The notes beneath the pieces were generated by a model, which was not told the DNA's origin, made no database searches, and saw only the letters and a program-made list of their open reading frames with translations. Source: Candidatus Firestoneibacteriota bacterium (GTDB taxonomy: Bacteria > Oederibacteriota > Muellerivitia > Muellerivitales > Muellerivitaceae). Taken from it: a DNA stretch of 64,000 nucleotides. The translations under genes and the position numbers were made by a program. Positions 11,674-55,077 of the stretch are shown in pieces; position 1 is the first letter of the stretch; each line of letters starts with the position of its first letter. The stretch covers positions 13,944 through 77,943 of the forward strand of contig JABDGD010000006.1 of NCBI GenBank assembly GCA_013286205.1. Reading direction: 5' to 3'.

Positions 11674-11677
11674 TAAA

Positions 11678-12799: not shown

Positions 12800-12898
12800 G
12801 GGCCCATTATATTGATTTTCATGGGTTAAAATCATTTAAAATCACACGTTGTTAAGGGTTTGGCACGAAAGACTTCAGACTATTTAAGGAATTCTGAC

Positions 12899-13366: not shown

Positions 13367-13368
13367 TG

Positions 13369-15095: not shown

Positions 15096-15121
15096 TTTAA
15101 GCCTTTCAAAAAAATCACTGA

Positions 15122-15844
15122 TTAAATCCGGTTTATACTTACTAACGAAATGGAATTGTTCAATTCCTCTTGATTGAATACGACGAGGATTTTATTTTTT
15201 TTATCGGAAAGAAGAAACACTTTTTTGCCTTTTTCTTCACTAATAAGGGTTTGTGTAAACCCCTTGTTAGCACAAGCTGTGTTGAAGACATGGAAGGGTT
15301 CCTCGGAATGAGGTAAAAGGATAACTCCGATATGTAAGCTTTGAAGTTTTAAATCAAAAAGGGCAGTGTTTGTTGAGGGAGGCGGGACGGGGAACTTCCA
15401 ATTTGATTTTGCCCCATTACTGTTAAACGCGGTTTTTGGAAAGTCGCTTGTAACGCCATAAGTGGCATCGGTATCTTTGGACTGCCAAAGTCCCAGGGTT
15501 CGATAAAGCCCTCCCTTTTCAAAAGCTTTTATTTGAACTTGGTTTGAAAGATCAACGTCTTTACTTAGCGAACCCAAAAGAACTGAAGTTAAATCAATAC
15601 CGTCATTCAGGGGTATCCAGTTATCCTTGGTCCAGCTCTGCGTTATCAAGGGGAGCAAATCGGTTAATTGGCCCTGATTTATCCAGAAGTCGGTTTTTTG
15701 TTTTTGTCCGTTAAGATCATTTTCGGTTCGAGAGATTAACTGTGGATCAAATCGTAATGGGGAACTGATCAGTGCCCAGCTGATGACGGTGCCACTTAAC
15801 ACGAATAAGAAAATGAATGTTCCCCAAAACCATTTTTGTTTCAT
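15122..15844 (-). CDS. Hypothetical single-pass membrane protein in the pilus operon
   Basis: Start reassigned to ATG 15844 (MKQKWFWGTFIFLFVLSGTVISWALI). This forms an ATGA overlap with the upstream TadE-like gene. No recognised domain. Confidence 0.5.
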   Translation of the reverse strand: MKQKWFWGTFIFLFVLSGTVISWALISSPLRFDPQLISRTENDLNGQKQKTDFWINQGQLTDLLPLITQSWTKDNWIPLNDGIDLTSVLLGSLSKDVDLSNQVQIKAFEKGGLYRTLGLWQSKDTDATYGVTSDFPKTAFNSNGAKSNWKFPVPPPSTNTALFDLKLQSLHIGVILLPHSEEPFHVFNTACANKGFTQTLISEEKGKKVFLLSDKKNKILVVFNQEELNNSISLVSINRI

Positions 15845-16326
15845 GCAGGATACCGGAGCGCAGTCAATTGTGTTTGAAAACCAATACCGTTGGGAAGAAC
15901 AAAGGCTGGCAGGAAGGGTGGTTGGCAATTGATTGAAATTGTCCATGTTTGACCTTCGTAATTGATAAGGTAAGAGCGGAGTTTGGCGGCCCAGGGGCCA
16001 AACGAATCAATTTTTTGTGTCAAGCTATCAACCAAAGTTGGTTGTGGAGGTTCAGTGTTGAGAGTAAGACTGTCTCTTTTAAAGTATTTTTGATAAACGC
16101 CTAATTTATCCCAGATATCTTGGTTGATCGCATCGGGGTTACTGACGAGTCCGGCATCATACTCTCTGGCTACATCGCCACAAGTTTTTTCGAAAGCAAT
16201 TCGGGCTTGAAATAAAATGATTAATTGAATGATGCCTGCCAACATTAAAACCAAAAGTGGTATTACTAAAATCATTTCAGTTAATGCCTGTCCTTTTTCC
16301 TGAGGTCTCTTAAATAAGATCATCAA
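15841..16326 (-). CDS. TadE-like pseudopilin
   Basis: N-terminus KGQALTEMILVIPLLVLMLAGIIQL matches the TadE N-terminal hydrophobic domain. Confidence 0.75.
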   Translation of the reverse strand: MMILFKRPQEKGQALTEMILVIPLLVLMLAGIIQLIILFQARIAFEKTCGDVAREYDAGLVSNPDAINQDIWDKLGVYQKYFKRDSLTLNTEPPQPTLVDSLTQKIDSFGPWAAKLRSYLINYEGQTWTISINCQPPFLPAFVLPNGIGFQTQLTALRYPA

Positions 16327-17440
16327 TAGCCTTCTTAAATAAGTTTTGCAAGTTTAGAAGATTCCCCAATTGACTCAAAATGGATTGGATGCCCATCTCT
16401 TTTGCCAGCTCGATTGGATCAGTAGGGGACAGGAATGCGCTGTAGTGAGGATCGCTTACTTTCCAAGCTTCCAAACCACTGCCGGAGACTGTTACCTGGC
16501 CCAGTGTCATTATTTCAGCTTTATTACCACTGGGATCTGCGATAGAAGTGGGATATGAACCGAAAACGAAAATATTGTGCAAAGGTGGGTCGTCTCTATC
16601 CGTTACATCTAGCTTTAAGGCAGTTAAAGCGTTGATTGTGTTGGCGAGTTTAGCCAACTTTTCAGATCCAGGAATCTTAATTTCTGTGACGAATTTGTAT
16701 TGATTCTCGAGGCCTGGTTTTACCCGGTAGCTTGCACCTCGAGAACCTGGAGCTAATTCAACTTGATCCTCGGTATAGGTGAATACTTTGCCGTCAGTTA
16801 CCCGCGTGAATTGGTAGAATTTTTTTGGTTTCAGCATGGTTAGAAAGCTTCCGTCTCGGAATTTGAGAGCCATGTTGGGGATCAATGCTTGTGTTGTTTT
16901 GGGTCCGATGGATAGGATGTTGAAAAATAGGATGGGGGAAGGTAGTGAGGTCGGGAGTTTCCAGTTGTTGGGACTGAAGCCGGGCCAGGTGCTTTTTAAA
17001 CCATTTTGGCCGGCGATTGAAAATGTCTCGACGGTGATGAGAAGGGGATATAGACCGGGAAGTTTGGTGGTAATACCAAAAAGGAGGTCTTGTACTTTTT
17101 GAACTGCTTTTACGAACGCGAGGGGATCAAAATCAAGAGTGAATAAAGAACCCAAAGCTACAAGTTCGCCAACGCCAGTAGCAAGGAGTGCGGCGCTCGC
17201 AAGCGCTGTAGCAATAACAATCATGTTGGAAAGTCGAACCACCTGCATTCCATTGGCGTAAACCGCGCCAGCTGCAAGAACGGTTAGGTTTGAGGCTCGA
17301 GTGGCTCGCTCCTTAGCCGAGTAAAGAAGTCCGGATTTAAATAAACCTAAAAAAAGTGCAATGAAAATGAAGCAAAAAAGCAAAGTGGCTAGTAGAACTT
17401 GGCCGGAAGGTTTTCGAGACCAATCTTTAAGACGGATCAT
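16310..17440 (-). CDS. TadG-like pilus assembly protein
   Basis: N-terminus KPSGQVLLATLLFCFIFIALFLGLF...AKERATRASNLTVLAAGAVYANG resembles the TadG/Tad_N-type start. Start set to ATG 17440 (ATGA overlap with the upstream gene). Confidence 0.6.
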   Translation of the reverse strand: MIRLKDWSRKPSGQVLLATLLFCFIFIALFLGLFKSGLLYSAKERATRASNLTVLAAGAVYANGMQVVRLSNMIVIATALASAALLATGVGELVALGSLFTLDFDPLAFVKAVQKVQDLLFGITTKLPGLYPLLITVETFSIAGQNGLKSTWPGFSPNNWKLPTSLPSPILFFNILSIGPKTTQALIPNMALKFRDGSFLTMLKPKKFYQFTRVTDGKVFTYTEDQVELAPGSRGASYRVKPGLENQYKFVTEIKIPGSEKLAKLANTINALTALKLDVTDRDDPPLHNIFVFGSYPTSIADPSGNKAEIMTLGQVTVSGSGLEAWKVSDPHYSAFLSPTDPIELAKEMGIQSILSQLGNLLNLQNLFKKAIDDLI

Positions 17441-17979
17441 GTTTTGGACCCTACAAAGTTTTCGTCTAAACACCGCGCCTCAAAGGTGAACCAAATCACG
17501 TTAGGTGTGTTCTGGGGCAGGTTGAAAGAGGGAAGCTTTAAACCAATAGTTCCTAAGAAGCTTAACAAGTCATTGGATAAGCCTAAAAGTGAGCCGGCGG
17601 TATTATTCAAAGGTTGACCGAAAACATTTCCGATTATTGGCATCCATATCGGCATTGGGTAACTAACAACGGCTTTGATTATGTGATTTTGTTCTTGTAT
17701 GTCGCATTTGCAAGAAATGGCATAAATCAAAGTCGAAGCATTCAGTTTTTCAATTGGAAAAAGAGCTGTAATGATTTGAAAATGTGGTTCGAAATCAGCA
17801 GCGTCACCAGAAGCCGAGGCTTGTTGTGCGATGGCGTTGGTGGCCTTTTGAATGGCCAATGAAACGAAGCCGCAATAAAAAAGTTGAATGATTCCAAAAA
17901 AGATCAGGAAAAGAATTGGGGTGATCAAAACGAATTCTACGGCTGATTGCCCCAATTCTTTATTTTTTGAAATGTTCAA
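17437..17979 (-). CDS. TadE-like pseudopilin
   Basis: N-terminus ELGQSAVEFVLITPILFLIFFGIIQL (TadE N-terminal domain). Confidence 0.75.
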   Translation of the reverse strand: MNISKNKELGQSAVEFVLITPILFLIFFGIIQLFYCGFVSLAIQKATNAIAQQASASGDAADFEPHFQIITALFPIEKLNASTLIYAISCKCDIQEQNHIIKAVVSYPMPIWMPIIGNVFGQPLNNTAGSLLGLSNDLLSFLGTIGLKLPSFNLPQNTPNVIWFTFEARCLDENFVGSKT

Positions 17980-29863: not shown

Positions 29864-29892
29864 GCCCCGTCCTTATGCGACGGGGCTTTTTT
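29864..29892 (+). terminator. Intrinsic terminator
   Basis: 8-bp GC-rich stem GCCCCGTC / GACGGGGC, 7-nt loop, then T6. Confidence 0.75.
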
Positions 29893-29952
29893 GCTATTAA
29901 GACAAAAAGAACTAATGGTTATTCAAATTCGAACTTTCTATGGGAGAAAGTG

Positions 29953-31275
29953 ATGCCTGACAACAAATCTGTAATTCAAATCGGAATGATTGGTTTCGGC
30001 AACGTGGGCCAAGGCGTTTACCGCCTTTTGGAGAAGAATCGTTCGCTGATCGAGTCAAAAGTCGGCGCTCAAATGCGCATCAAACGTATCATGGTGCGTG
30101 ATTTAACTAAGGCGCGCGAAGTAACCGTGCCTGAAGGCATGCTCACCACTAACTTTGACGACATTTTAAATGACCCGGAGATCGACATTGTGCTCGAACT
30201 GATGGGGGGGTATGAACCCACGCGTTCTTATCTTTTGGCCGCGATGAAAAAGGAAAAGCATATCGTGACGGCGAACAAGGCCGTTCTTTCCATGCATTGG
30301 GATGAAATTATCCAGACGGCTCGTCAGCATAAAGTTGACATTTACTTTGAAGCGGCGGTTTGCGGCGGAATCCCAGTGGTTCAGGCGATCAATGACGGGT
30401 TAGCGGCCAATAACATCATGTCCATTTACGGCATTGTGAACGGAACCACTAATTTCATCCTTCAAAAGATGACCGAAGAAAAGAAGTCTTATAAAGAAGC
30501 TCTTCAAATGGCGCAGAAGAAGGGTTTGGCTGAGGCGGATCCGACATTGGATATCAATGGTATGGACGCGGCCCACAAGCTGGCAATCTTGAGTTCTTTA
30601 GCCTTTTCGAAACGGGTCAAAGTTGAGGATATCTATGTTGAGGGAATTGACCGTATTACGGTTCAAGACATTGAATTCGCTAAAGAAGAATTTGGCATGG
30701 TGGTTAAACTTTTCGCCATCGCTGAAGTGGAAGGGGACGAATTAGAAGTGCGCGTCCACCCCACCTTGATTCCTCAAGACCATTTGCTGGCCAAAGTGGA
30801 CGGCGAATATAACGGCGTGCTGGTCACTGGCGATTTTGTGGGAACGACGATGTATTACGGCTTGGGCGCTGGCAACAAACCAACCGCCTCGGCTGTCATG
30901 AGCGATCTCATATATGTTGGCCGCAGCGTTCACGACAATGTGGCCGGTGAAATTTCAAACTGCTGGTTCCTGAATGATAACCCGCAGATTAAACGCATCA
31001 AGAAAATGGGGGACATTAAGTCCCGCTACTTCCTGAAATTCTCTGTGCTCGATCAGGCGGGCGTGTTATCCGCTATTTCCCGCATCTTGGGCGAACACCG
31101 GATCTCAATCGCTTCGGTTATTCAGAAAGAACAGAAAAAGGGCGACAAGGTGCCGGTTGTTATCGTGACTTACGAAGCAAAAGAAGAAGACGTACAGGAA
31201 GCCCTAAAGAAAATTAACGGCCTGCCCTTTGTGCAGGAAGAAACACTTTTAATCCGTATGGATCGAGGCGAATAG
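29953..31275 (+). CDS. hom: Homoserine dehydrogenase
   Basis: IGMIGFGNVGQGV NAD(P) site, ANKA, FEAAVCGGIP, GIVNGTTNFIL, and a C-terminal ACT domain. Start moved to ATG 29953 (GGGAGAAAG Shine-Dalgarno). Confidence 0.92.
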   Translation: MPDNKSVIQIGMIGFGNVGQGVYRLLEKNRSLIESKVGAQMRIKRIMVRDLTKAREVTVPEGMLTTNFDDILNDPEIDIVLELMGGYEPTRSYLLAAMKKEKHIVTANKAVLSMHWDEIIQTARQHKVDIYFEAAVCGGIPVVQAINDGLAANNIMSIYGIVNGTTNFILQKMTEEKKSYKEALQMAQKKGLAEADPTLDINGMDAAHKLAILSSLAFSKRVKVEDIYVEGIDRITVQDIEFAKEEFGMVVKLFAIAEVEGDELEVRVHPTLIPQDHLLAKVDGEYNGVLVTGDFVGTTMYYGLGAGNKPTASAVMSDLIYVGRSVHDNVAGEISNCWFLNDNPQIKRIKKMGDIKSRYFLKFSVLDQAGVLSAISRILGEHRISIASVIQKEQKKGDKVPVVIVTYEAKEEDVQEALKKINGLPFVQEETLLIRMDRGE

Positions 31276-32337
31276 ATGGCTTACTGGAAGGGTGTTATTG
31301 AAGAATATCGCTCCTATTTACCGGTCTCGGAAAAGACACCGGTTATAACCTTAAAAGAAGGTGATACGCCGCTGATCTATGGGCCGAACATCTCGAAAAA
31401 GCTAGGCAATGACCTGAAACTTTATTTTAAGTTTGAGGGTTTAAACCCAACTGGTTCCTTTAAAGATCGCGGCATGACGATGGCCATGTCGAAGGCAATG
31501 GAAGACGGCGCCAAAGTGGTAGTGTGCGCTTCGACTGGTAACACTTCAGCCGCCGCTGCCGCTTATGCGGCACATGCTGGCATCTCTTGTGCGGTGTTTT
31601 TACCGCATGGTTCAATCGCGTTGGGCAAGATGGCTCAGTCTCTTATATATGGGGCGAAAGTGATCGCGGTAGAGGGCAGCTTTGATAAGGCTTTAACGCT
31701 TACTCGCGAACTGGCGGATAAATATCCGGTTACTATGGTGAACTCCAATAACCCTTACCGTATTGAAGGTCAAAAGACCGCGGCGTTTGAAATTGTGGAT
31801 ACGATTGGAGACGCGCCGGAATATCACGCTATCCCTGTGGGGAATGCCGGCAACATTACGGCCTATTGGAAGGGCTATAAGGAATATCACGCTAAGGGCT
31901 TGTCGAAACAATTGCCCAAGATGTGCGGATTCCAAGCGGCTGGTTCGGCTCCGATTGTATTGGGCAAAATAGTTGAAGACCCGAAGACCATTGCCACCGC
32001 GATTAAGATTGGTAATCCCTATTCATGGAGAACGGCTGAAGCGGCCCGAGATGAATCCAAAGGCGTTATCGAAGCGGTGACGGATGAGGAAATTTTAGAA
32101 GCTTACCAACTGTTGGCCTCGACCGAGGGCATTTTTTGCGAACCCGCCTCGGCGGCTTCTTTGGCCGGTGTGATTAAGAAGAATAAACAGAATTACTTTG
32201 TGGATGGTCAAAGACGGGTGGTTTGTACCTTGACTGGCCACGGTTTGAAAGATCCGGATCGCGCGGTGGAACGCTGCCCGAAGCCGAGCGTGGTGAAGCC
32301 TGAGCTGGGCGAGATTTTAAAAGTTTTAAACCTTTAG
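31276..32337 (+). CDS. thrC: Threonine synthase (canonical, 353 aa)
   Basis: LKEGDTPL, NPTGSFKDRGMT PLP-lysine motif, ASTGNTSA. Located directly after hom. Confidence 0.92.
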   Translation: MAYWKGVIEEYRSYLPVSEKTPVITLKEGDTPLIYGPNISKKLGNDLKLYFKFEGLNPTGSFKDRGMTMAMSKAMEDGAKVVVCASTGNTSAAAAAYAAHAGISCAVFLPHGSIALGKMAQSLIYGAKVIAVEGSFDKALTLTRELADKYPVTMVNSNNPYRIEGQKTAAFEIVDTIGDAPEYHAIPVGNAGNITAYWKGYKEYHAKGLSKQLPKMCGFQAAGSAPIVLGKIVEDPKTIATAIKIGNPYSWRTAEAARDESKGVIEAVTDEEILEAYQLLASTEGIFCEPASAASLAGVIKKNKQNYFVDGQRRVVCTLTGHGLKDPDRAVERCPKPSVVKPELGEILKVLNL

Positions 32338-32353
32338 GATAAAAGGAAAAACG

Positions 32354-33589
32354 ATGGCATTGATTGTTCAAAAATTTGGCGGTTCCTCCGTGGCTGACGC
32401 TTCCAAAATGCTGGAAGTGGCGCGCCGTATTGCCAAAAACCGAAAAGCGGGCAATGACGTGGTGGTGGTCGTTTCCGCTCCGGGTGATACGACTGATGAT
32501 TTGATCGCCATGGCTCAAAAGATTACCGATGAGCCTGATGATCGTGAAATGGACGTTTTGCTGGCGACAGGTGAACAACAGGCGATCGCTTTATTGGCTA
32601 TCGCGCTGAAAAGTTTGGATTGTGACGCCATCTCTTTCACCGGCCCTCAGGCGGGGATTGTGACTGATGACGTTCATACAAAAGCCCGAATCGTGAAGAT
32701 GGGTGATTCAAAGATCCGTGGGGCCTTGAAACTAGGCAAAGTGGTAATCGTGGCTGGATTCCAGGGTATGAATAAAGACCAGGAAATCACCACGCTAGGC
32801 CGGGGCGGCAGCGATCTGACAGCGGTAGCCATCGCGGCGGCTTTGGGAGCTGATGTTTGTGAGTTCTATAAAGACGTGGACGGCGTTTTCACCGCGAATC
32901 CAAATATTGTGAAAAACGCCCGTAAGATTAACGCGATCAGCTATGACGAAATGCTGGAAATGGCCAGCGCGGGGGCCCAGGTACTTAACGCCCGCTCGGT
33001 GGAATTCGCCAAGAATTTTGGAATCAAGATTCACGTCCGGCCGACATTTAACGAAAAAGAAGGGACTTACGTTATGCAAGAAACTAAAGCGATGGAAAAA
33101 GAAGTCATCAGCGGGGTGACTTACAACAAAGACGAGGCGAAGGTGACTGTTCGGGGCGTTCCGGACCGGCCTGGCGTGGCTTCCATTCTTTTTTCTAAAC
33201 TGGCCAAGGTGGGCTTGAATGTAGACATGATCATTCAGAATATCGGGGAGAAGGGCCATTCAGACGTTTCGTTTACGGTGAACCGTAGCGAGTTGAAGAA
33301 AACCATGAAAGTGGTGAATGAGGCGGCGAAAACTTTAAAGCCGGCCGGCGTTATTTCGGACGAGAATATCGCTAAAGTTTCCGTGGTGGGCGTGGGCATG
33401 AAATCCCATTCAGGTGTGGCGGCCAAGATGTTTCAAGCTTTGGCTGAAACGGGCGTGAATATTTTGATGATTTCGACCTCGGAAATTAAAATTTCAGTAG
33501 TGATTAATGAAAAGGACGTGGCCAAAGCGGTCGCGGCGATTCACGATAAGTTTAAGCTGGGAAAAAAGGCGGCGAATGAGCGTGGATAA
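32354..33589 (+). CDS. lysC: Aspartate kinase
   Basis: MALIVQKFGGSSV, GRGGSDLTA, and two C-terminal ACT domains. Confidence 0.93.
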   Translation: MALIVQKFGGSSVADASKMLEVARRIAKNRKAGNDVVVVVSAPGDTTDDLIAMAQKITDEPDDREMDVLLATGEQQAIALLAIALKSLDCDAISFTGPQAGIVTDDVHTKARIVKMGDSKIRGALKLGKVVIVAGFQGMNKDQEITTLGRGGSDLTAVAIAAALGADVCEFYKDVDGVFTANPNIVKNARKINAISYDEMLEMASAGAQVLNARSVEFAKNFGIKIHVRPTFNEKEGTYVMQETKAMEKEVISGVTYNKDEAKVTVRGVPDRPGVASILFSKLAKVGLNVDMIIQNIGEKGHSDVSFTVNRSELKKTMKVVNEAAKTLKPAGVISDENIAKVSVVGVGMKSHSGVAAKMFQALAETGVNILMISTSEIKISVVINEKDVAKAVAAIHDKFKLGKKAANERG

Positions 33590-38799: not shown

Positions 38800-38828
38800 T
38801 TGACAGGATTGGCTGACTTTTATAGTAT
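38800..38828 (+). promoter_or_regulatory. Candidate sigma70-type promoter of the riboswitch-led operon
   Basis: TTGACA (38800-38805), 17-nt spacer, TAGTAT (38823-38828). Lies about 18 nt upstream of the riboswitch P1 helix. Confidence 0.5.
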
Positions 38829-38845
38829 CTTTTAACAATTTAACG

Positions 38846-38973
38846 CTCTTATCCAGAGTGGCAGAGGGACAGGCCCTGTGAAGCCACGGCAACCGGACCC
38901 CCAGTTTAAAACTTGGGGTTGCTAGGTGCCAATTCCTACTTCGGTAATGCAAATGTCCGAAGTGAGATGAGAG
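38846..38973 (+). promoter_or_regulatory. SAM-I (S-box) riboswitch aptamer
   Basis: P1 CTCTTATC / GATGAGAG. Conserved core: AGAGTGGCAGAGGGACAGGCCCTGTGAAGCCACGGCAACC ... GGTGCCAATTCC. Confidence 0.9.
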
Positions 38974-38990
38974 ATGGAAAACCAAAGTCA

Positions 38991-39025
38991 AAAGGCTTCC
39001 ATCTCCGTATGGAAGCCTTTTTTTA
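38991..39025 (+). terminator. Riboswitch expression-platform terminator
   Basis: Stem GGCTTCCAT / ATGGAAGCC followed by T7. The upstream GATGGAA (38972-38978) can pair with the 5' arm as an antiterminator alternative. Confidence 0.8.
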
Positions 39026-39059
39026 TTGAAGGCTCCTGGGAGCGAATTCAGGAGAATTT

Positions 39060-40292
39060 ATGAGTTACGTGAAAGCTTTAAAGTGCCGTGAGTGCGGCCA
39101 GGAATACGAAAAAGTCGCCAAGTATGTCTGCGAGTTTTGTTTTGGCCCTCTGGAAGCGGCCTATGACTATGACAAAATCAAAAAAGATATCACCCGCGAG
39201 AAAATTGCCTCCCGTCCACTGAACATCTGGCGCTATAGAGAATTGCTGCCAGTAGAAGGCGAAAAGTACAACACGCTTCAAGAAGGCTATACGCCGCTTC
39301 TGAAAGCGGACCGCTTGGGCGCCGAACTGGGCATGAAGAATCTCTACATTAAAAATGACTGCGCTAACCCGACCCATTCTTTTAAAGATCGTGTGGTGGC
39401 GGTCGCTTCGACCCGCGCTTTGGAACTGGGTTTTGATACCTTGGCCTGCGCTTCTACAGGCAACCTGGCTAATGCGGTGGCTGCTTATGGCGCCCACGCC
39501 GGTATGAAACGCCATGTCTTTATCCCTTCGGATTTAGAGAAGGGAAAGATCATCGGCGCTTTGGTTTATGACCCTAATTTGGTCGGCGTCAAAGGCAACT
39601 ATGATGACGTGAACCGCCTTTGCAGCGAAATCGCCGGTAAATACAAATGGGCCTTTGTGAATATCAATATGCGTCCTTATTACGCGGAAGGTTCCAAAAC
39701 CCTGGCTTTTGAAACGGCTGAACAGTTGGGCTGGGTCGCGCCAGACCAAGTTGTGGTGCCGGTCGCCTCGGGATCTCTTTTAACCAAGATTTGGAAGGGC
39801 ACTCAGGAATTTATTAAAGTGGGTCTTATCGCGGATAAAAAAATGCGTGTGTTTGGCGCACAAGCCGAAGGTTGTTCTCCAGTGACTACCGCCTATAAAG
39901 CGAAGGTAGATACTTTCCGTCCTGTGAAACCCAATACGATCGCTAAGTCTTTGGCCATTGGAAATCCGGCGGATGGTTATTATGCTTTGAAGACCATCGC
40001 GGAATCAAACGGCGGAGCCGAGATGGCCTCTGATCCGGAAATTATCGAGGGCATTAAGCTTTTGGCCCGCACGGAAGGTATCTTTGCTGAGACCGCTGGC
40101 GGGGTAACGATTGCCTGCTTGAAGAAACTAGTCGAGTCCGGCGCGTTGGATAAGGATGCGGTGACTGTGGCTTATATCACCGGCACGGGTTTAAAAACCC
40201 AGGAAGCGGTGGCCGATCACCTGAGAGAAGTGAAGATCATTCAACCCAATCTGGAAGCTTTCGAAGCCAGCCAATTACAGCCGGTTTCTTAA
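39060..40292 (+). CDS. Threonine-synthase-like PLP enzyme with N-terminal zinc ribbon (ThrC paralog)
   Basis: CRECGQEY...CEFCFGPL ribbon. [11 protein letters not shown]-lysine motif. ASTGNLANA. 410 aa. It is the second ThrC-family gene in the window. Confidence 0.85.
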
Positions 40293-40383
40293 GTTTTTCG
40301 AAGAATGGATTGTGAAAAAGGTCTGGCAAATTCAGCCGTCCTTCAGTCATAATCAGCACTCAAATTCACCAGGAGGCTTCACC

Positions 40384-40662
40384 ATGGCCGTAAAAGTATT
40401 GATCCCTACACCCTTACGCAATTTGACCAATAACCAGGCGGAAGTCTCGGCCGAAGGCAACACCGTGGCCGAATTGATCGACCAACTCAGCAAAAGCTAT
40501 AACGGTCTTCGCGACCGGTTGGTGGATGAAAACGGCAAAATCCGCCGCTTTGTGAATATTTACGTCAACGAAGAGGATATCCGCTTCTTGCAGGGTGAAT
40601 CGACCGCGCTGAAAGCCGGCGATCAGGTCTCCATCGTGCCGGCCATCGCTGGCGGCAAGTAA
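40384..40662 (+). CDS. CysO/MoaD/ThiS-family sulfur-carrier protein ending in GGK
   Basis: [14 protein letters not shown]...[14 protein letters not shown] closely resembles CysO-type carriers. Start set to ATG 40384 (AGGAGG Shine-Dalgarno) rather than track start 40312. Confidence 0.82.
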
Positions 40663-40673
40663 GCTCTCGTTTT

Positions 40674-40705
40674 AAAGGCTCCTTTTGAGGAGCCTTTATT
40701 TTTTT
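40674..40705 (+). terminator. Hairpin plus T-tract between the carrier gene and the NIL gene
   Basis: Perfect 9-bp stem AAAGGCTCC / GGAGCCTTT, 6-nt loop, then ATTTTTTT. Confidence 0.65.
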
Positions 40706-40719
40706 AGAAGGACAATCCC

Positions 40720-40968
40720 ATGGCGAATCTCAAAAAATTGGTCGAATTAGATTACCCCAACGAATTGGTCACCGAACCGGTTCTTTCTAACGTTATTAAG
40801 AAGTTCAATATAAGCGTCAATCTGCGCAGGGCTTCTATTACCAAGGGCTTTGGCTATGTTCAAATGCAAATTGAGGGTGAAGAACAAGAAGTGAAAAAGG
40901 CCCTGGCCGAACTGACAAGCAAGGGTATTGACGTCAATCCTATCGAAAAAGACGTATTAGAGTCCTAA
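40720..40968 (+). CDS. Stand-alone NIL-domain protein
   Basis: 82 aa. EPVLSNVIKKFNISVNLRRASI...GYVQMQIEGEE...ALAELTSKGIDV matches the NIL-domain pattern (as in the MetN C-terminus). Confidence 0.7.
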   Translation: MANLKKLVELDYPNELVTEPVLSNVIKKFNISVNLRRASITKGFGYVQMQIEGEEQEVKKALAELTSKGIDVNPIEKDVLES

Positions 40969-41630
40969 TGACCTCAGCTGATCAAAACGATAAATACAGC
41001 CGTCAAACTATTCTTCCGGGTGTGGGCCCGGAAGGTCAAAAAAAATGGACTGACGCCCATGTGCTTTTAGCGGGTGAAGGCATGGCTTTGCTGGCTGGGG
41101 TTCAAGCTCTGTCGTCCGTCGGCGTGTCGAAAATAACCTTGCTGGTCCACGAACACTTTGATCCCTCGTTTTTGGTTTCTAATCCTCCCCAAATTAGTGT
41201 GGAAGCTATTCCGATGACGGCCCAACTGCCCAGCTTTACCGCCGCTTTGGTGGTCTCTCCCAACACGAAGCTTCGCCGTCAGCTCAACCGCGTTTTTCGA
41301 AAAAATCACCAACCCGCGGTTTTCGCCTGGCCATCCGGCAGCGGTTTCGCCTTGTTTACCAGCCGGTATCAAAATGGCTGTCCCTGCTTAGAATGTTTCG
41401 AGGTGCTAAATCCGAAGGCTTTCTCCAAAGGTGGCCATTCCATTGACCGATTGTTGGGTGCTTCCGCGGCATCTGAGGTGCTGGAACTGATTTTGAACGG
41501 CGACTCGCCTTTAGAAAACAAGGTTTGGATTACGGCTTTAGAATCCGGTTTGTCAGTCAAACACGAAGTGATGCCTACTTACAAATGTCCCGCCAAAATG
41601 ATTGAGAATGGCGCGGTGGTGACGCCGTGA
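40968..41630 (+). CDS. ThiF/MoeB-like E1 fold protein with degenerate nucleotide-binding motif
   Basis: YSRQTILPGVGPEGQKKW E1-type start. The glycine loop reads LLAGEGMALLAG instead of GxGxxG. CPCLEC and YKCP Cys pairs are retained. TAATG overlap with the NIL gene. Confidence 0.6.
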   Translation: MTSADQNDKYSRQTILPGVGPEGQKKWTDAHVLLAGEGMALLAGVQALSSVGVSKITLLVHEHFDPSFLVSNPPQISVEAIPMTAQLPSFTAALVVSPNTKLRRQLNRVFRKNHQPAVFAWPSGSGFALFTSRYQNGCPCLECFEVLNPKAFSKGGHSIDRLLGASAASEVLELILNGDSPLENKVWITALESGLSVKHEVMPTYKCPAKMIENGAVVTP

Positions 41631-42589
41631 GCGAGTATAACCGGTACCCGGTTGCCGCGGATGTGACAGGCCTTATTGGCGAAACACCGCTTCTTAAACT
41701 CAAACGCATTCCCGAAAAAAACAGCGCCCAAATTCTTTGCAAGTTAGAGTTCTATAACCCTGGCGGCAGCGTGAAAGACCGTATCGCCCTTGCCATGATC
41801 GTTGACGCCGAAAAGAAGGGGCTCTTAAAGCCGGGAGGTACTTTGGTGGAACCCACCAGCGGTAACACCGGTATTGGTTTGGCGATGGTTTGCGCGCAAA
41901 GAGGGTACAAGCTGATTCTGGTTATGCCGGAAGATATGAGCCAGGAACGCCGCGTTTTACTCAAGGCTTATGGAGCTGACCTGGTTTTAACACCTGCTCA
42001 GGGGTTTATGACTGAGGCGGTCCGCAAAGCCAAAGAAATCAAAGAACAAAATCCCCAGTACTTCATGCCCGAACAGTTCGCTAATCGAGCCAATCCCGAA
42101 TCGCACAAATGCACCACAGCGCCTGAAATCGACAAAGACACCGAAGGTAAGTTTGATGCTTTTGTGGCTGGCATCGGCACTGGCGGTACCATTACGGGCG
42201 TGGGGGAATATTTCAAAGCCAAAAATTCCAATGTGAAAATTATTGGGGTGGAACCAGCCGCTTCGGCTGTTTTGTCCGGCGGTAAGCCGGGGGTTCACCG
42301 CATTCAGGGTATTGGCGCAGGTTTTATTCCGTCGGTTCTCAACCGTTCGGTGATTGATGAAATGGTCACAGTTACGGATCACGAAGCCTATCTCATGACC
42401 AAACGTCTCGCCCGCGAAGAAGGTCTTTTATTGGGTATTTCCTCTGGTGCTAATGTGGCCGCCGCGCTTAAAGTTGGCGCGAAGTTAGGCCCTCAAGCCC
42501 GGGTAGTCACTATCTGCTGTGACATGGGCGAGCGTTACTTTAGCCTTGAGGCTGAATTTGAATCCGAATTGGCTTCCAGCAACCTCTAG
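41627..42589 (+). CDS. Cysteine synthase family (CysK/CysM-like) PLP enzyme
   Basis: NPGGSVKDRIA PLP-lysine motif, TSGNTGIGLA, GIGTGGTITG. GTGA overlap with the E1-like gene. Confidence 0.88.
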   Translation: MSEYNRYPVAADVTGLIGETPLLKLKRIPEKNSAQILCKLEFYNPGGSVKDRIALAMIVDAEKKGLLKPGGTLVEPTSGNTGIGLAMVCAQRGYKLILVMPEDMSQERRVLLKAYGADLVLTPAQGFMTEAVRKAKEIKEQNPQYFMPEQFANRANPESHKCTTAPEIDKDTEGKFDAFVAGIGTGGTITGVGEYFKAKNSNVKIIGVEPAASAVLSGGKPGVHRIQGIGAGFIPSVLNRSVIDEMVTVTDHEAYLMTKRLAREEGLLLGISSGANVAAALKVGAKLGPQARVVTICCDMGERYFSLEAEFESELASSNL

Positions 42590-42660: not shown

Positions 42661-43287
42661 ATGTCCCTGAAAATCGAAGTCTATTCCGATGTCATTTGTC
42701 CCTGGTGCTATCTGGGCGAAAGCCGGCTCAAAGAAGCTATCGCTTCGCATCCGAAGGGTGCCGAAGTCGAGGTTCGCTACTTGCCCTACGAGCTTAATCC
42801 GGCCACTCCGCCCGAAGGGCATGATCGTAAGGAGTATCTCCAGGCTAAATACGGCGACCGTATTAAACAGGCGGATGAACGTTTAAAGGCTTTCGGCAAG
42901 CAGGCGGGGATTGAGTACAACTTTGATAAAGCCAACCGTATTCCCAATACGCTCAAGGCGCACCGTCTCATCTGGTTCGCGGATCAGAAGGGCGCGCAGG
43001 AAAGGGCTGTGAACGGATTGTTTAAAGCTTACTTTACGGATGGGGTTGATATCGGTGATACAGCCTCATTGAGCAAGTTAGCGGCGCAATGGGGATTAGA
43101 CTCTACTGAAGTTGAAAAGTTTTTAAACTCCGAAAAAGGTCAGGAAGAAGTACGCGGGTTAGAAGAAGCGGGATATAACCTGGGTGTGACTGGCGTTCCG
43201 TTCTTTGTGTTTGACGGTAAGGCGGCGGTTTCGGGCGCGCAAGATGTGCATACCTTTACCGAAATCATTACGGATATGACGACCTAA
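42661..43287 (+). CDS. DsbA/FrnE-family thiol oxidoreductase
   Basis: YSDVICPWCYLG CxxC motif and C-terminal GVTGVPFFVF. Confidence 0.82.
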   Translation: MSLKIEVYSDVICPWCYLGESRLKEAIASHPKGAEVEVRYLPYELNPATPPEGHDRKEYLQAKYGDRIKQADERLKAFGKQAGIEYNFDKANRIPNTLKAHRLIWFADQKGAQERAVNGLFKAYFTDGVDIGDTASLSKLAAQWGLDSTEVEKFLNSEKGQEEVRGLEEAGYNLGVTGVPFFVFDGKAAVSGAQDVHTFTEIITDMTT

Positions 43288-43901
43288 TTAACGCTCCACC
43301 CGCTGTGAATCTTAAAGTCCACGGGTTGCTGGGCAATAATTTTGGATTCTTCGACCAACAACTTCTTCCAACGGATATCCACCTCTAAATCGGGAGAAAC
43401 CTTCTTCGCCATATCGAGAAATATCTGGTAATGGCCGTTTTCAGAGGCGATCAAGCCGCTGTAAAACTTATTCAAGTCGGCGTCTTTTGCCTCTTCCGTC
43501 AGCCGGATAAACCGCTCGCAGGAACGGGCCTCCACTAACGCGGAAACAATCAACCGGTCGGTTAAGTCGTCTTTACCGCCGCCCTTACGAATCAATTTTC
43601 TCAAATCATAGGCATAAGGGTTTTTGTGGGCCCTTTCTAACTCGCCGCCCTTTTTTTCCAATAGCTTTAAAGCGGCCTGCATATGGGCGGTTTCGTCGCG
43701 GGCAATGGCGGCCACCGAAGCCAGCCAGTGCAGCGGAGCCTGTGGGCCGGGCCAAAGGTTTAAAAACTCCAAGGCGTTATTGGCGGCTTTTTTTTCCAGA
43801 TAAACTTGGTCGGATAGTAGAGCGTGGGTGTTTTCCAGAACCTGTTTAGCCCATTTGGCGGGGGTAAGGGTGAGCAGAGGTATGTCGTAAGAGGTTGGCA
43901 C
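43284..43901 (-). CDS. miaE: tRNA-(ms2io6A)-hydroxylase MiaE-like di-iron protein
   Basis: Ferritin-like helices with YLEKKAANNA, ARDETAHM, EARSCERF and ASENGHY (ExxH-type ligands). About 200 aa. Confidence 0.65.
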   Translation of the reverse strand: MPTSYDIPLLTLTPAKWAKQVLENTHALLSDQVYLEKKAANNALEFLNLWPGPQAPLHWLASVAAIARDETAHMQAALKLLEKKGGELERAHKNPYAYDLRKLIRKGGGKDDLTDRLIVSALVEARSCERFIRLTEEAKDADLNKFYSGLIASENGHYQIFLDMAKKVSPDLEVDIRWKKLLVEESKIIAQQPVDFKIHSGWSVN

Positions 43902-46157: not shown

Positions 46158-47363
46158 TTGAAAAAAAACAATGTTCTTTTATTCCTTCTCTTATTTGTCC
46201 TGAGGATAGATAACGTCCAGGCTCAAGCGGCTTATGCTGAAAGACCTTATCTGGTCTCAGCGTCTATTTATATGGCGGCTGATACTCAGGCAGATGTCTG
46301 GCTCAACGGGATTCACGTCACTCATTGTCCCCATACCACCATGGCGCTGGGGCCCAAAACCATTTTGGCCAGGCCTGACAGTCTCTGCCTCTTCAATAAA
46401 GATAATGTACTTTCCATCAAGCTGGAGGGCAAAGGCAGTTCTTCGGGTCAGTTTGTGGGTGTAGCCTATGCTGTCAGCTTCACATTCTCGGATGGTACTT
46501 TTTACGTCATGAACAGTTCATCGCCGGGCGAACACCGCAGTTTTTATATCCCGCAGAGAGGGACGGATGAGCCTGAAGGCTGGCAGGAGATAGGTTTTGA
46601 TGATTCGCTTTGGCCACTGGCCAAAAACTCGAATGATTTGATTCCGGATACGGCCTCGTTGTCGGGCGCCGCTTTTGGTGGAACGGCTAAATTTTTGACC
46701 GCCTCTTCCACGGGTTATTTTATTCAGCACCCGGGTGAGAAACATTTATTCCGCCGTCACTTTAGCTTGGATATCAGCGTTAACCCCCGCTGCCTGCCAA
46801 AACCCAAACCGGCGTTAACTGTCCGGGTCAAAACGCCTACATCGACTTCCTTATCTTCAGTCACGCCGGTAGTTATTCCGGCCCACAAGGAACCTTTGGC
46901 GGCTTCGCCGCAATTGGCTAAAGCTACGCATCAAACGACCTTTTCGGTTTTGTCTCCCATGAAAGCCTGGCCTACCTCGACACCCACGTTATTTGTGCCT
47001 TTGCCGACCGCTACGCAGGTAGAGTCCGTTCCTACCGCAACCATGGTGCCGGTAGCGACACCGCATATATTTCCCACGATGGTGATTCAGGATGACGGCG
47101 CGGTGGTTTTTGGGCAGTCTAACGCGAATATTTTGGTGTTATTCGGTGATGGCCCTGGTTATTACACGGTGGAAGCGGTGGATGCCAATCACACTCACTT
47201 GAAAACTCTTTTAAACCAACGCATCATAAACACTTCGGAAATGTGGCTTACTTGGGATGGCAAAGACGAGCATGGCAAGGATGTGCCGGTCGGTCAATAC
47301 TTTATTCTTTGCTCCAAAGAGGGAACAGTTCTTCAAACGATTCTTTTACGCCGGGCACAGTAA
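46158..47363 (+). CDS. Hypothetical secreted protein with C-terminal FlgD-Ig-like domain
   Basis: Signal peptide and a Pro/Thr/Val-rich linker. C-terminus YTVEAVDANHTHLKTLLNQRI...LTWDGKDEHGKDVPVGQYFI resembles FlgD-type Ig folds. TTG start. Confidence 0.5.
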   Translation: MKKNNVLLFLLLFVLRIDNVQAQAAYAERPYLVSASIYMAADTQADVWLNGIHVTHCPHTTMALGPKTILARPDSLCLFNKDNVLSIKLEGKGSSSGQFVGVAYAVSFTFSDGTFYVMNSSSPGEHRSFYIPQRGTDEPEGWQEIGFDDSLWPLAKNSNDLIPDTASLSGAAFGGTAKFLTASSTGYFIQHPGEKHLFRRHFSLDISVNPRCLPKPKPALTVRVKTPTSTSLSSVTPVVIPAHKEPLAASPQLAKATHQTTFSVLSPMKAWPTSTPTLFVPLPTATQVESVPTATMVPVATPHIFPTMVIQDDGAVVFGQSNANILVLFGDGPGYYTVEAVDANHTHLKTLLNQRIINTSEMWLTWDGKDEHGKDVPVGQYFILCSKEGTVLQTILLRRAQ

Positions 47364-48083
47364 TTGAAAGAAAACATGGATTTAAAAAATCTCAAAATTC
47401 TGATCGTAGGCGTCGGCGGGCTGGGTTGTCCCGCGTCTTTAGCTTTGGCTGAAGCGGGCGTCGGAACGCTGGGTCTGATGGATCCAGACCATGTGGAACT
47501 TTCCAACCTTCACCGGCAAATTCTTTATTCCGAAGAAAATGTGGGTCAGTTAAAGGTTGAGGCCGCCCAAAAGTATCTCCAGCGTTTATTTCCACAAACT
47601 AAAACTAATCTTATTCCCGAAGCCTTTGGGGCGGTTAACGCCGAAAAGGTTCTTCAATCTTATGATCTTGTTGTAGATGGTTTGGACCGGCTGGAAAAAA
47701 AGTTTGTTTTGAACGACTGGTGCGTCAAATTGAACAAACCTTTTGTGCATGCGGGCGTAGTGAAATTTGAAGGGCAAGTGCTGCCGGTGATTCCGGGCAA
47801 AACGGCCTGCCTCCGCTGTTTGATTCCCAAAATCCCTCCTCCCTTTGCCTTGCCCACTTGCCGGGAAGCGGGTGTACTGGGTTCTTTCTCGCAGGCGATT
47901 GGCTTTTTGCAAGCCTATGAAACCCTGCGCTTGGTCAGCCACCCTGAAAATTTATTTTTGTGGAAGTGGAATATTCAAAAACGAACCGCGCGTTCTATAC
48001 GCCCGGTAAGAAATCTGGATTGTCAGGCCTGCTCGGGCAAAGTGTTTGAAGAGACTATCGGGGAAATGACCTGCAAAGTTTAG
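47364..48083 (+). CDS. moeB: MoeB/ThiF-type E1 adenylyltransferase (canonical motifs)
   Basis: ILIVGVGGLGCPASLALAEAGVG glycine loop, DPDHVELSNLHRQ, and CLRC / CQAC zinc pairs. ATG 47376 is an alternative start. Confidence 0.85.
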   Translation: MKENMDLKNLKILIVGVGGLGCPASLALAEAGVGTLGLMDPDHVELSNLHRQILYSEENVGQLKVEAAQKYLQRLFPQTKTNLIPEAFGAVNAEKVLQSYDLVVDGLDRLEKKFVLNDWCVKLNKPFVHAGVVKFEGQVLPVIPGKTACLRCLIPKIPPPFALPTCREAGVLGSFSQAIGFLQAYETLRLVSHPENLFLWKWNIQKRTARSIRPVRNLDCQACSGKVFEETIGEMTCKV

Positions 48084-52986: not shown

Positions 52987-55077
52987 ATGAACAACGCTAA
53001 AAAACCAGGGGGCGAAATGGTTTTTCAACACGGTTGGAGAGTCTGCGCGTTCATTGCGCTGTCACTGGCGCTATGGAGCGGGAAAGTTTTTGCCCAAACC
53101 CCAGAACCTACCGAATCGTCCACCGTCACGCCGTCCATTACGTCCTCTCCGGTTGAGCTGAAAAAATTAAGTCTCGAACAATTAATGAACCTCGATGTCA
53201 CTTCGGTGGCTAAAGAACCTCAGCCCTATGGTCAGGCGCCTGCCGCCATTGTAGTCCTCACTAACGACGCTATCCGCCGTTCGGGCGCTTCCAGCATTCC
53301 AGAGGCGCTGCAGCTGGCTGACAATTTAAACGTGGCGCAAAAAGATTCCCACGACTGGTCTATCAGCGCGCGCGGGTTCAACACCGATTTGTCCAACAAA
53401 CTTCTCGTTTTGATAGACGGACGCAGTGTTTATTCGCCGCTCTTCTCCGGCGTCTTTTGGGATGCCCAGGATTATTTGCTGGAGGATATCGACCGTATTG
53501 AGGTCATCAGCGGCCCGGGTGGAACCCTTTGGGGTGCCAATGCGGTGAACGGCGTCATCAACATCACCAGCAAGAGCGCCAAAGAGACTCAGGGTCTCTA
53601 TATTGAGGGCGGCGGCGGTATGGAGTGGTCACCTGAATTGCAGGATTTTGAGGCGATCCGTTATGGCGGCGCGCTGGGACCGGATCTTTTTTACCGGTTC
53701 TATGGAAAATATGATGCCCGGGGCAGCGAGCCTTTATTAACCAATGGAAACGCCGCCAATGATTCCTGGACGAACGGCCAGGGCGGCTTCCGAATCGACT
53801 CGATTACGACGGGACAACACCTGACCATTCAGGGGGATATTTACTCCAACATCGAAAGTATCTCCACCGGCGGAACGGCGCAGAAAAGCGGCGGCAATAT
53901 ACTGGAGCGCTGGACCCGCACCTTCGACGACGATTCCAACGTGAGCCTGCAGTTTTACTATGACCACACTTTTATTAACGACCCCGAACCGGAGGCCTTT
54001 TTATCCACATTGGCAGCGGCGCCGCCAGGAATTTTCACCGACAGGCTGGACACTATTGACCTAGACTTCCAGCACCATTTCCATTTGGATGATCACAACA
54101 ACTTCAGTTGGGGATTCGGCTACCGCTACACCGACGATCTGACCGGGGCCTCCCCGGGATTGGCCTTCGCGCCTTCTCCCTTGCTGCAGAATCTTTATAG
54201 TCTTTTCGCTCAGGATGAGATCCGGCTTTTGTCCAATGTCTTCCTCACGGCGGGCAGCAAGGTTGAGCACAATGACTACACGGGCTATGAGTATGAGCCC
54301 AGTGGCCGGTTGAAATGGGATGTGACTGAAAACCAGATGCTGTGGGCGGCGGTTTCGCGGGCGGTCCGTATGCCGTCCGAGGTCGATACGAATGAGCGGG
54401 GACTGACGCCCCTTCTCAACGCGTTCCATATCACCTCGAGTATAAACGGGTCGCCGGGTTTCCTGTCCGAGGTCCTCGTCGCCTATGAGTTGGGTTACCG
54501 GGCCCAGCTGGACAAAAACTTTTCCACTTCCATCTCGACCTTTTTCAATAATTACACTGATATCCGCAGCACGGGCACCACTCCCGGAGGGGCGCTGGGA
54601 ATCCTGCCTTTCGTTTTTCAAAACAACCTGATGGCCCAAACCTGGGGCGTTGAGCTGACCACCGATTACCAGGTACTGGACTGGTGGAGGCTGCATGCCG
54701 GCTATGACCAGCTCAACGAGTCGGTTTGGGTCGCGCCGGGCCAGCTTGACCTCAATAAAGGTCTTAATGAAACGGCGGATCCGCCAAACCAGATTTTTGT
54801 CCGATCCTCCATGGATTTACCCGGGCATTTGGAACTGGACCCGGCCTTCCGCTGGATCGACACTTTTACCTATAACAACAGCGGTGTTCCGGGAACTGTT
54901 CCGAACTACGCTGAGTTAGATGTGCGCCTAGCCTGGCACGCCTCCCCGAATCTTGAGCTTTCCGTTACGGGCCAGAATCTTCTGCATCCCTACCATCTGG
55001 AATACGTGATTTCCAGTCCCGCACCTACGGAAGCAATTTCCCGCAATGTGTATGGAAAGGTTGCGTTACGGTTTTGA
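52987..55077 (+). CDS. TonB-dependent outer-membrane receptor
   Basis: Signal peptide. Plug domain: LVLIDGRSVYSP, IEVISGPGGTLWGANAVNGVINI. Beta barrel ending in the aromatic VALRF. Confidence 0.9.
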   Translation: MNNAKKPGGEMVFQHGWRVCAFIALSLALWSGKVFAQTPEPTESSTVTPSITSSPVELKKLSLEQLMNLDVTSVAKEPQPYGQAPAAIVVLTNDAIRRSGASSIPEALQLADNLNVAQKDSHDWSISARGFNTDLSNKLLVLIDGRSVYSPLFSGVFWDAQDYLLEDIDRIEVISGPGGTLWGANAVNGVINITSKSAKETQGLYIEGGGGMEWSPELQDFEAIRYGGALGPDLFYRFYGKYDARGSEPLLTNGNAANDSWTNGQGGFRIDSITTGQHLTIQGDIYSNIESISTGGTAQKSGGNILERWTRTFDDDSNVSLQFYYDHTFINDPEPEAFLSTLAAAPPGIFTDRLDTIDLDFQHHFHLDDHNNFSWGFGYRYTDDLTGASPGLAFAPSPLLQNLYSLFAQDEIRLLSNVFLTAGSKVEHNDYTGYEYEPSGRLKWDVTENQMLWAAVSRAVRMPSEVDTNERGLTPLLNAFHITSSINGSPGFLSEVLVAYELGYRAQLDKNFSTSISTFFNNYTDIRSTGTTPGGALGILPFVFQNNLMAQTWGVELTTDYQVLDWWRLHAGYDQLNESVWVAPGQLDLNKGLNETADPPNQIFVRSSMDLPGHLELDPAFRWIDTFTYNNSGVPGTVPNYAELDVRLAWHASPNLELSVTGQNLLHPYHLEYVISSPAPTEAISRNVYGKVALRF

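Follow-up and report, generated by a model that had tools for sequence, protein, structure and literature searches.

The 64,000-nucleotide stretch of a Candidatus Firestoneibacteriota genome analysed here (the window) carries, at 38800-42589, a SAM-I riboswitch (SAM, S-adenosylmethionine) followed by a ThrC paralog (metM), a sulfur carrier gene (metO), a stand-alone NIL-domain gene, a gene for an E1-like protein (pE1, pseudo-E1) and a cysK gene. This locus is probably a sulfur-incorporation cluster around the MetM/MetO route, comprising a split E1 and a NIL subunit. The riboswitch, the ThrC paralog and the carrier match a pathway published in 2024; what is added here is the NIL protein and the pair formed by pE1 and ThiF-deltaN, a truncated ThiF encoded further downstream. 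All functions discussed are predicted from sequence and synteny. The features concerned are listed below with their coordinates in the window, strand and evidence.

38800..38828, +: sigma-70-like promoter TTGACA-17-TAGTAT (10 of 12 consensus positions; consensus match only)
38846..38973, +: SAM-I (S-box) riboswitch aptamer (RF00162, 83.9 bits)
38971..39025, +: expression platform with antiterminator arm and intrinsic terminator (hairpin, T-run, complementarity)
39060..40292, +: metM, ThrC-family pyridoxal phosphate (PLP) enzyme, 410 aa, N-terminal zinc ribbon (PF00291, PF05810, NF006050)
40384..40662, +: metO, ThiS/MoaD-type sulfur carrier, 92 aa, ending ...AIAGGK (PF02597, SAMP1)
40673..40705, +: terminator-like hairpin between metO and NIL, 11 pairs and T7, stem 40673-40698 (hairpin scan)
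40720..40968, +: stand-alone NIL-domain protein, 82 aa, free of cysteine (PF09383)
40968..41630, +: pE1, 220 aa (partial PF00899, AlphaFold2 model, motif loss)
41627..42589, +: cysK, PLP enzyme of the O-acetylserine sulfhydrylase A (OASS-A) type, 320 aa (TIGR01139)
47364..48083, +: ThiF-deltaN, intact E1 without the N-terminal arginine-finger helix, presumed to activate MetO (PF00899, 218.9 bits)
29875..33589, +: context genes hom, canonical thrC (31276-32337) and aspartate kinase (hom-thrC-ask), homoserine supply (NCBIfam assignments)

The probable MetM/MetO core and its SAM-I leader

Streptomyces albulus makes homocysteine from O-phosphohomoserine by a thiocarboxylate route (Hasebe et al. 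2024, Appl Environ Microbiol 90:e01247-24, as summarized by GapMind 2026). In it MetO serves as carrier, Mec as hydrolase and MoeZ as ligase, and MetM is a homologue of ThrC. PMC12172450 reports a SAM riboswitch upstream of S. albulus metM, and homologues of the enzyme in cyanobacteria. MetM is described as "often misannotated" as threonine synthase (GapMind 2026). The window gene fits this picture. It matches PF00291 (226 bits) and PF05810 and passes both NF006050 (304.9 bits against a cut-off of 303) and the thrC profile TIGR00260. Its ribbon has the form C9xxC12...C24xxC27, and these four cysteines are invariant among relatives together with the PLP lysine (SFKDR). The canonical thrC, 7 kb upstream, is 37% identical to metM, which has the Cys4 ribbon in addition. 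The best matches of metM in the PDB are ordinary threonine synthases, and the PDB holds no MetM-type structure. Relatives number in the thousands and are called "threonine synthase" wherever they are named; the closest named homologues are from Nitrospirota (67% identity), and cyanobacterial and actinomycete ones are 60-63% identical to the window protein. A cyanobacterial homologue is in turn 51.6% identical to S. albulus MetM (PMC12172450).

The neighbour of metM scores 73.5 bits with PF02597 and 61.8 bits with SAMP1. Its C-terminus is Gly-Gly followed by one Lys, so that maturation requires trimming. A search of the window for a JAMM/Mec peptidase, with a profile made from 24 cluster-linked JAMM genes, found none. 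In three other loci a MetO-like carrier domain (..AIAGG) is naturally fused in front of a complete E1 (L076:9253-10335, L089:9235-10302, L085:13764-15014). These fusions of 355-416 aa occur in metagenome-assembled genomes (MAGs) of Elusimicrobiota, Actinomycetota and Dehalococcoidia, and their Gly-Gly becomes free only after cleavage; in L089 a JAMM gene is close by.

The occurrence of MetM was examined by a scan of species-representative genomes, in which open reading frames (ORFs) were classified by local hidden Markov models. This gave 80 loci at 60-67% identity, spanning Nitrospirota, Chloroflexota, Cyanobacteria, Actinomycetota, Verrucomicrobiota, Planctomycetia, Elusimicrobiota and Aquificota. 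Neighbours within 3 kb of MetM were counted in the 71 loci having at least 1.5 kb downstream of it. A MetO carrier was present in 66/71, a NIL gene in 51/71, at least one E1 in 27/71 and two E1 genes in 19/71; CysK and a JAMM peptidase were each present in 24/71. Gene orders are CysK-E1-MetM-MetO-NIL-E1-JAMM in Nitrospira, MetM-MetO-NIL-ThrC in Thermodesulfovibrionia, MetM-NIL-MetO in Dehalococcoidia and MetM-MetO only in Cyanobacteria. Within the lineage of the window, defined as MAGs whose MetM is at least 75% identical to that of the window, MetO-NIL-pE1-CysK form one tight block at MetM-bearing loci. MetM is next to the block in some of them, and three to nine genes are inserted in L007, L008, L123 and L009/L010. 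The loci L002/L003 (MetM 73% identical) show MetM-MetO-NIL without a SAM riboswitch and without adjoining pE1 or CysK; there a biotin-synthase-like radical SAM gene precedes MetM.

An Rfam covariance search with RF00162 gave 83.9 bits on the leader (gathering threshold 44.4, E 2.4e-18) over the full model (positions 1-108), and the Rfam scan found this single SAM-I, at 38846-38973 (+), in the window. Behind the aptamer comes an intrinsic terminator (38990-39021) with a stem of 13 bp and a T-run, and the leader folds with a z of -5.5 relative to shuffled copies. Positions 38971-38979 (GAGATGGAA) are exactly complementary over 9 bp to the terminator's 5' arm at 38997-39005 and share bases with the 3' strand of P1; terminator and antiterminator of this RF00162 platform are mutually exclusive. 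In the usual S-box design SAM binding favours termination. The same should hold here because the antiterminator complementarity overlaps the 3' strand of P1, and we predict a SAM-responsive transcription switch in which SAM should favour termination.

The riboswitch tracks MetM only. Using a covariance model built from the lineage's own riboswitches, we found SAM-I directly 5' of MetM in 16 of the 80 other genomes (Verrucomicrobiota, Actinomycetota, Chloroflexota and Elusimicrobiota), and also in L004. Within the lineage it was directly 5' of MetM in all 16 relatives scanned in which the sequence upstream of MetM was present; the Rfam model confirmed it in five related loci. When MetM is detached from the block, as in some lineage relatives, the riboswitch accompanies MetM, and MetO-NIL-pE1-CysK has none in front of it. 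The hairpin after metO is confined to the window and its nearest relatives (L092, L093) and is missing from more distant ones, so a terminator distal to metO was rejected as a general feature. In the window about 14 nt separate its T-run from the NIL ATG, which leaves no room for a promoter; expression of NIL-pE1-cysK therefore needs upstream read-through or a promoter inside metO. A single riboswitch for all five genes is weakened by this hairpin and by the bare upstream regions of the detached blocks.

Most of what the initial annotation had proposed for this part of the locus held: the S-box aptamer at exactly 38846-38973 with a terminator of its own, a second threonine-synthase-family gene with an N-terminal zinc ribbon distinct from the thrC at 31276, and a CysO/MoaD-type carrier. 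It had also taken SAM control as a sign of methionine rather than threonine metabolism, which agrees with the riboswitch of S. albulus metM. The MetM/MetO pair that it named from Streptomyces is the one described for S. albulus (Hasebe et al. 2024). Control of all five genes by the riboswitch is not clearly the case. Its view of the five-gene layout as uncharacterised has to be divided: the riboswitch-MetM-MetO core was already published, whereas the NIL and pseudo-E1 additions are undescribed in the literature searched.

The assignment to MetM is supported because the parts match the published ones, a canonical thrC coexists, the ribbon is conserved, and the Gly-Gly carrier and SAM-I recur. 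It thus rests on architecture, context and regulation, and metM is a predicted thiocarboxylate-dependent homocysteine synthase. The window contains no metA, metX, metB, metY, metZ, metE, metH or metK, and no thrB or homK. At L048:5750-6988 and in 7 other loci the MetM cluster has a proposed homoserine kinase of the HomK type (TIGR02535, 576 bits) as its neighbour; O-phosphohomoserine fits as the substrate because such a gene adjoins some MetM clusters. Two Aquificota MAGs (L082, L083) have MetM-like genes at 62% identity, with no carrier adjoining on these short contigs. Aquifex aeolicus is listed without a known homocysteine pathway (PMC5764234), and MetM may be the missing homocysteine route in Aquificota.

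The pseudo-E1 and the truncated ThiF

Only residues 10-66 of pE1 match PF00899/ThiF. Its AlphaFold2 model (predicted local distance difference test score 87.6) has MoeB as best fold match (1jw9_B, template modelling score 0.73, E 4e-14), and pE1 is accordingly modelled with the Rossmann-like fold of E1s. Its P-loop reads GEGxAL (here GEGMAL) instead of GxGGxG, about 23 residues including DxDxVxxSNLxRQ are missing, and Ser replaces the Mg-binding Asp; 65 relatives show these losses as well. The ATP-site motifs of ThiF/MoeB adenylyltransferases being absent, pE1 is not classed as such an enzyme; it is predicted to be catalytically dead and unable to bind ATP. The label of pseudo-E1 given by the initial annotation is borne out by this loss. 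What pE1 retains is the arginine-finger motif (K/R)(Y/F)SRQ, whose nearly invariant R12 aligns to MoeB R14: among 65 relatives the N-terminal motif is kept in 59 and SNLxRQ is missing in all. Also conserved are the CPCLEC and C207 cysteines and a C-terminal GAxVTP tail. The family is small and well conserved: a word-indexed search gave 65 clusters, and when 1.84 billion representatives were searched exhaustively only 14 reached E <= 1e-10. The gene call for pE1 in L124 is too short, and TRYSRQ is present in the complete ORF. Two pE1 homologues on metagenome contigs (L094:2241-2903 and L103:1200-1880), each with over 1 kb of sequence upstream, lack a detectable NIL, MetO or CysK and are exceptions to the block seen elsewhere. 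Some 20 distant E1-like proteins of 190-235 aa (among P0318-P0366) have likewise kept RYSRQ and lost both P-loop and SNLxRQ; by their motifs, dead E1 paralogs may exist in other, apparently high-GC, lineages.

The second E1 of the window, at 47364-48083, is intact and had been missed by the initial annotation. All the catalytic motifs are present in ThiF-deltaN (GVGGLG, DPDHVELSNLHRQ, DGLD, CxxC), and its match begins at PF00899 profile position 17. On TIGR02356 (203 positions) pE1 covers 1-59 and ThiF-deltaN 18-202. The P-loop stands at residue 16, and the proteins of the lineage start 6-19 residues before it. A longer form is ruled out because an in-frame stop lies directly upstream of the TTG start. 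Encoding of the lost N-terminus further upstream was also rejected: besides this stop, the upstream ORF is a secreted protein devoid of the motif, and the small upstream ORFs of L007 and L008 are membrane peptides. The upstream ORF of the window (46158-47363, 401 aa, no Pfam match) has its stop directly in frame with the ThiF TTG start. Its junction with ThiF looks coincidental, since in relatives the frame differs or a small membrane ORF stands in its place.

The losses in the two proteins are complementary. Among relatives of ThiF-deltaN the N-terminal motif occurs in 0/120, and P-loop and SNLxRQ are kept in 109/120. E1s in the clusters of other phyla have RYSR[QH] 27 residues before GxGGxG in 48/48 cases. 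Wherever a locus holds both genes, the same split between pE1 and ThiF-deltaN is seen (13/13). In L005/L006 and in L124 the ThiF-deltaN gene is part of the cluster, with cysDN next in the former and sulfite reductase next in the latter. The full order is ...CysK-ThiF-CysD-CysN at L005:8001-14476 and MetM-MetO-NIL-pE1-CysK-DUF5128-ThiF-sulfite reductase at L124:10001-17483, so in these relatives the cluster runs into sulfate assimilation. On profiles of the two Nitrospira E1s, pE1 scores about 30 bits with each of ThiF1 and ThiF2, and ThiF-deltaN scores 30-45 bits higher on ThiF1. ThiF-deltaN resembles the Nitrospira E1 that precedes MetM, and pE1 stands where Nitrospira has its E1 after NIL.

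The motif pattern of a heterodimeric E1 is thus found here: the inactive subunit keeps the N-terminal Arg and the active subunit is without it. In Sae1, the inactive domain, Arg21 lies in the N-terminal helices and contacts the gamma-phosphate of the ATP in Uba2 (PMC6279746), and a matching pair, Arg57/Arg515, is described in UBA1 and MoeB (review PMC12355090). Given the complementary motif losses and these arginine precedents in eukaryotic E1s and MoeB, we propose a pE1:ThiF-deltaN heterodimer with the Arg supplied in trans. The motif data suggest a heterodimeric E1 of the Sae1/Uba2 type; the pair is undescribed in the literature searched.

The NIL protein, CysK and neighbouring genes

The NIL protein reaches 55.8 bits with PF09383 (gathering threshold 24). 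The 62 cluster-linked NIL proteins share the motif P..lIkePV...NIRRA...G.v.lEl.G; no cysteine is conserved, and 44 of the 62 have none at all. A role as persulfide relay was rejected on this account, the window protein being Cys-free as well. The nearest solved relatives, at weak E-values, are the methionine-binding C-terminal domains of MetN. The NIL neighbours of MetM counted above belong to several phyla, and MetM-NIL pairs with no carrier or E1 nearby (L037, L050, L057) make MetM the likeliest partner. NIL is most likely a small ligand-sensing or docking subunit acting with MetM, a guess based on its domain family and on synteny. The parallel drawn by the initial annotation with NIL proteins of methanogens is loose: the domain is shared, but the window protein is without ferredoxin domain or conserved Cys. 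No DUF39 (COG1900) family was found in the window by Pfam scans of ORFs of at least 120 aa; background on the DUF39/NIL-ferredoxin route and on the Wolinella thiocarboxylate route is given in PMC5764234. NIL goes unmentioned throughout the GapMind 2026 text (0 occurrences). It is a widespread neighbour of MetM that is undescribed as a pathway partner in the literature searched.

CysK is by its sequence an ordinary OASS-A, closest to sulfide-using enzymes. It scores 445.8 bits with TIGR01139 (cut-off 351) and carries K50 (the PLP lysine) and the PTSGNTG loop. Its best solved relatives include 2egu and, at 350 bits, M. tuberculosis CysK1 (2q3b); the M. tuberculosis CysM chain is not among its best 60 PDB matches, all of at least 241 bits. 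Of the "CysK/CysM-like" enzyme first proposed, the CysK side stands, and a CysM type was rejected on the TIGR01139 and PDB scores. The stop of pE1 and the start of cysK overlap in this locus and in almost every related one; the TAATG and GTGA overlaps said to couple the NIL, E1-like and CysK genes were confirmed.

Downstream of cysK the window encodes a DsbA/FrnE-like protein containing CPWC (42661-43287) and MiaE (43284-43901, -). Both stay downstream of cysK in L001, L007 and L008, and L123 shows the DsbA gene before the locus ends. A redox tie of the DsbA/FrnE-like protein to the sulfur cluster is possible. Elsewhere in the window are Tad/Flp-type pilus genes (9311-17979, -; T2SSE ATPase, secretin, RcpC/CpaB, TadE-like) and a TonB-dependent receptor (52987-55077), which together indicate a diderm organism.

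Competing explanations and likeness to known systems

The locus could work as follows. At high SAM the aptamer would form, the antiterminator would stay unpaired and transcription would end at 38990-39025; at low SAM metM and metO would be transcribed, and the second, probably partial, terminator after metO would lower read-through into NIL-pE1-cysK. By homology, the extra Lys of MetO would be trimmed to expose Gly-Gly, the E1 at 47364-48083 would adenylate MetO, and MetM would join the MetO thiocarboxylate with O-phosphohomoserine to give homocysteine. The conversion of MetO-AMP to the thiocarboxylate would most likely use sulfide from assimilatory sulfate reduction. In this scheme pE1 would give the truncated ThiF its lost N-terminal arginine finger in trans, forming a heterodimeric E1 like Sae1/Uba2. 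NIL would be a Cys-free, ACT-like subunit of MetM, most likely sensing methionine or homocysteine or serving in docking, and CysK would act as an ordinary cysteine synthase on the same sulfide pool. The scheme in its strict form is possible rather than probable, and we offer it tentatively: the duties of the E1 would be split between a dead pE1 with a trans Arg finger and ThiF-deltaN as an obligate heterodimer, the Nitrospirota with their two intact E1s would represent the state before the split, and NIL would be an overlooked general subunit of MetM in many phyla.

That metM is a second, SAM-regulated threonine synthase among unrelated sulfur genes seems to us highly improbable. A canonical thrC stands 7 kb upstream in a hom-thrC-ask operon, the riboswitch is of a class that controls methionine and SAM genes, and a carrier gene adjoins in 66 of 71 genomes. 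This stands against the passing of TIGR00260 and NF006050, the name used in public records and the threonine synthase and deaminase activity that a cyanobacterial homologue showed in vitro (PMC12172450); the name is moreover a frequent misannotation of MetM (GapMind 2026). One carrier might instead serve two PLP enzymes, as the initial annotation supposed, the MetO thiocarboxylate supplying MetM for homocysteine and the CysK homologue for cysteine, in the way that CysO supplies CysM in M. tuberculosis, while NIL and pE1 act as carrier-handling subunits. MetO-NIL-pE1-CysK does stay a coupled block even with MetM 4-14 kb away, CysK is at most 3 kb from MetM in 24 of 71 other genomes, and the Nitrospira string CysK-E1-MetM-MetO-NIL-E1-JAMM holds all the mec-cysO-cysM parts. 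We nevertheless regard such sharing as unlikely: the enzyme passes the NCBI equivalog cut-off for CysK and is CysK1-like at 350 bits, with CysM outside the best 60 PDB matches, the window holds no JAMM hydrolase, and a common sulfide supply explains the clustering with cysDN or sulfite reductase equally well. With the second enzyme an OASS-A type CysK, two PLP enzymes on one carrier find no support in the sequence.

For pE1, a role unrelated to ThiF has to be considered. It would be a non-catalytic scaffold or regulator of CysK, NIL or both, holding MetO or plugging the active site with its tail, and ThiF-deltaN would be a lone homodimer. The gene arrangement speaks for it, with the pE1 stop overlapping the cysK start and NIL directly before pE1 in nearly every locus and ThiF-deltaN usually several kb off; so do the conserved GAxVTP tail, CPCLEC and C207, and the presence among the fold matches of heterocyclases of ribosomally synthesized and post-translationally modified peptides (RiPPs), in which non-catalytic E1-like domains are known. 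We find this role doubtful, as it gives no account of why, among the ThiF-like parts of pE1, it is the Arg helix that is best conserved and that is absent from ThiF in 13 paired loci and 120 relatives, and ThiF-deltaN is in the same gene string in L005/L006 and L124. Several points weigh against the MetM/MetO cluster with a pE1:ThiF-deltaN heterodimer. The conserved GAxVTP tail is not accounted for by a split E1, pE1 is not placeable with either Nitrospira E1 paralog, and, given the invariable NIL-pE1-CysK coupling, the partner of pE1 could instead be CysK or NIL. ThiF-deltaN is 4.8 kb away in the window, behind unrelated genes, and short ThiF families exist whose profiles start near the P-loop (TIGR02354), so that some E1s may need no helix. 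As to the pathway, genes for a JAMM/Mec peptidase, a homoserine kinase, a rhodanese and a cysteine desulfurase are absent from the window, and its MetM is tied to the characterised S. albulus enzyme indirectly, through the cyanobacterial and actinomycete homologues.

These results bear on genome annotation in several phyla. In Nitrospirota, Chloroflexota, Cyanobacteria, Verrucomicrobiota, Aquificota and others, enzymes of the MetM type carry the annotation threonine synthase, and recognising them fills a gap in methionine biosynthesis in many genome-based metabolic models. As NIL recurs, the four proteins of the published pathway (MetM, MetO, MoeZ, Mec) may not be the full set in most phyla, with NIL as a specific candidate for a further member. 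The pair of pE1 and ThiF-deltaN offers a simple model, tractable by experiment, of how a eukaryote-like asymmetric E1 could arise from a homodimeric MoeB/ThiF ancestor by duplication and reciprocal loss.

The closest known system is MetM/MetO of S. albulus. The two share a ThrC-like enzyme beside a ThiS-like carrier, a SAM riboswitch 5' of metM, O-phosphohomoserine as expected substrate, and the need for an E1 and for maturation of the carrier C-terminus. The E1 described for S. albulus is MoeZ, which has a rhodanese domain, whereas here we find a short E1 lacking rhodanese and N-terminal helix together with a dead paralog. The gene block here also includes NIL and CysK, and Mec/JAMM is absent from the window. 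In the CysO/CysM/Mec/MoeZ system of Mycobacterium tuberculosis and the HcyS/HcyF/HcyD/MetY system of Wolinella succinogenes a protein thiocarboxylate is the sulfide donor to a PLP enzyme. Clustering of carrier, E1 and PLP enzyme is common to these systems and to the present locus, in relatives of which sulfate-assimilation genes join in. The homocysteine-forming enzyme predicted here is however a ThrC-fold MetM acting on a phospho-ester and not MetY or CysM, and CysK, unlike CysM, is of the sulfide-using type. With the NIL domains of MetN and NIL-ferredoxin proteins the present ones share the Pfam domain and a tie to methionine or homocysteine; they differ in standing alone (78-103 aa), without ATPase, ferredoxin or conserved Cys, and in being partnered with MetM. 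The predicted pair differs from eukaryotic E1s in having neither a catalytic-cysteine nor a ubiquitin-fold domain and no E2, and in acting on a sulfur carrier rather than a protein modifier; the heterodimer is predicted from the sequences. What the predicted pair has in common with Sae1/Uba2, APPBP1/UBA3 and the inactive and active domains of Uba1 is that one partner without an ATP site keeps the N-terminal Arg helix; the catalytic partner Uba2 also starts close to its P-loop.

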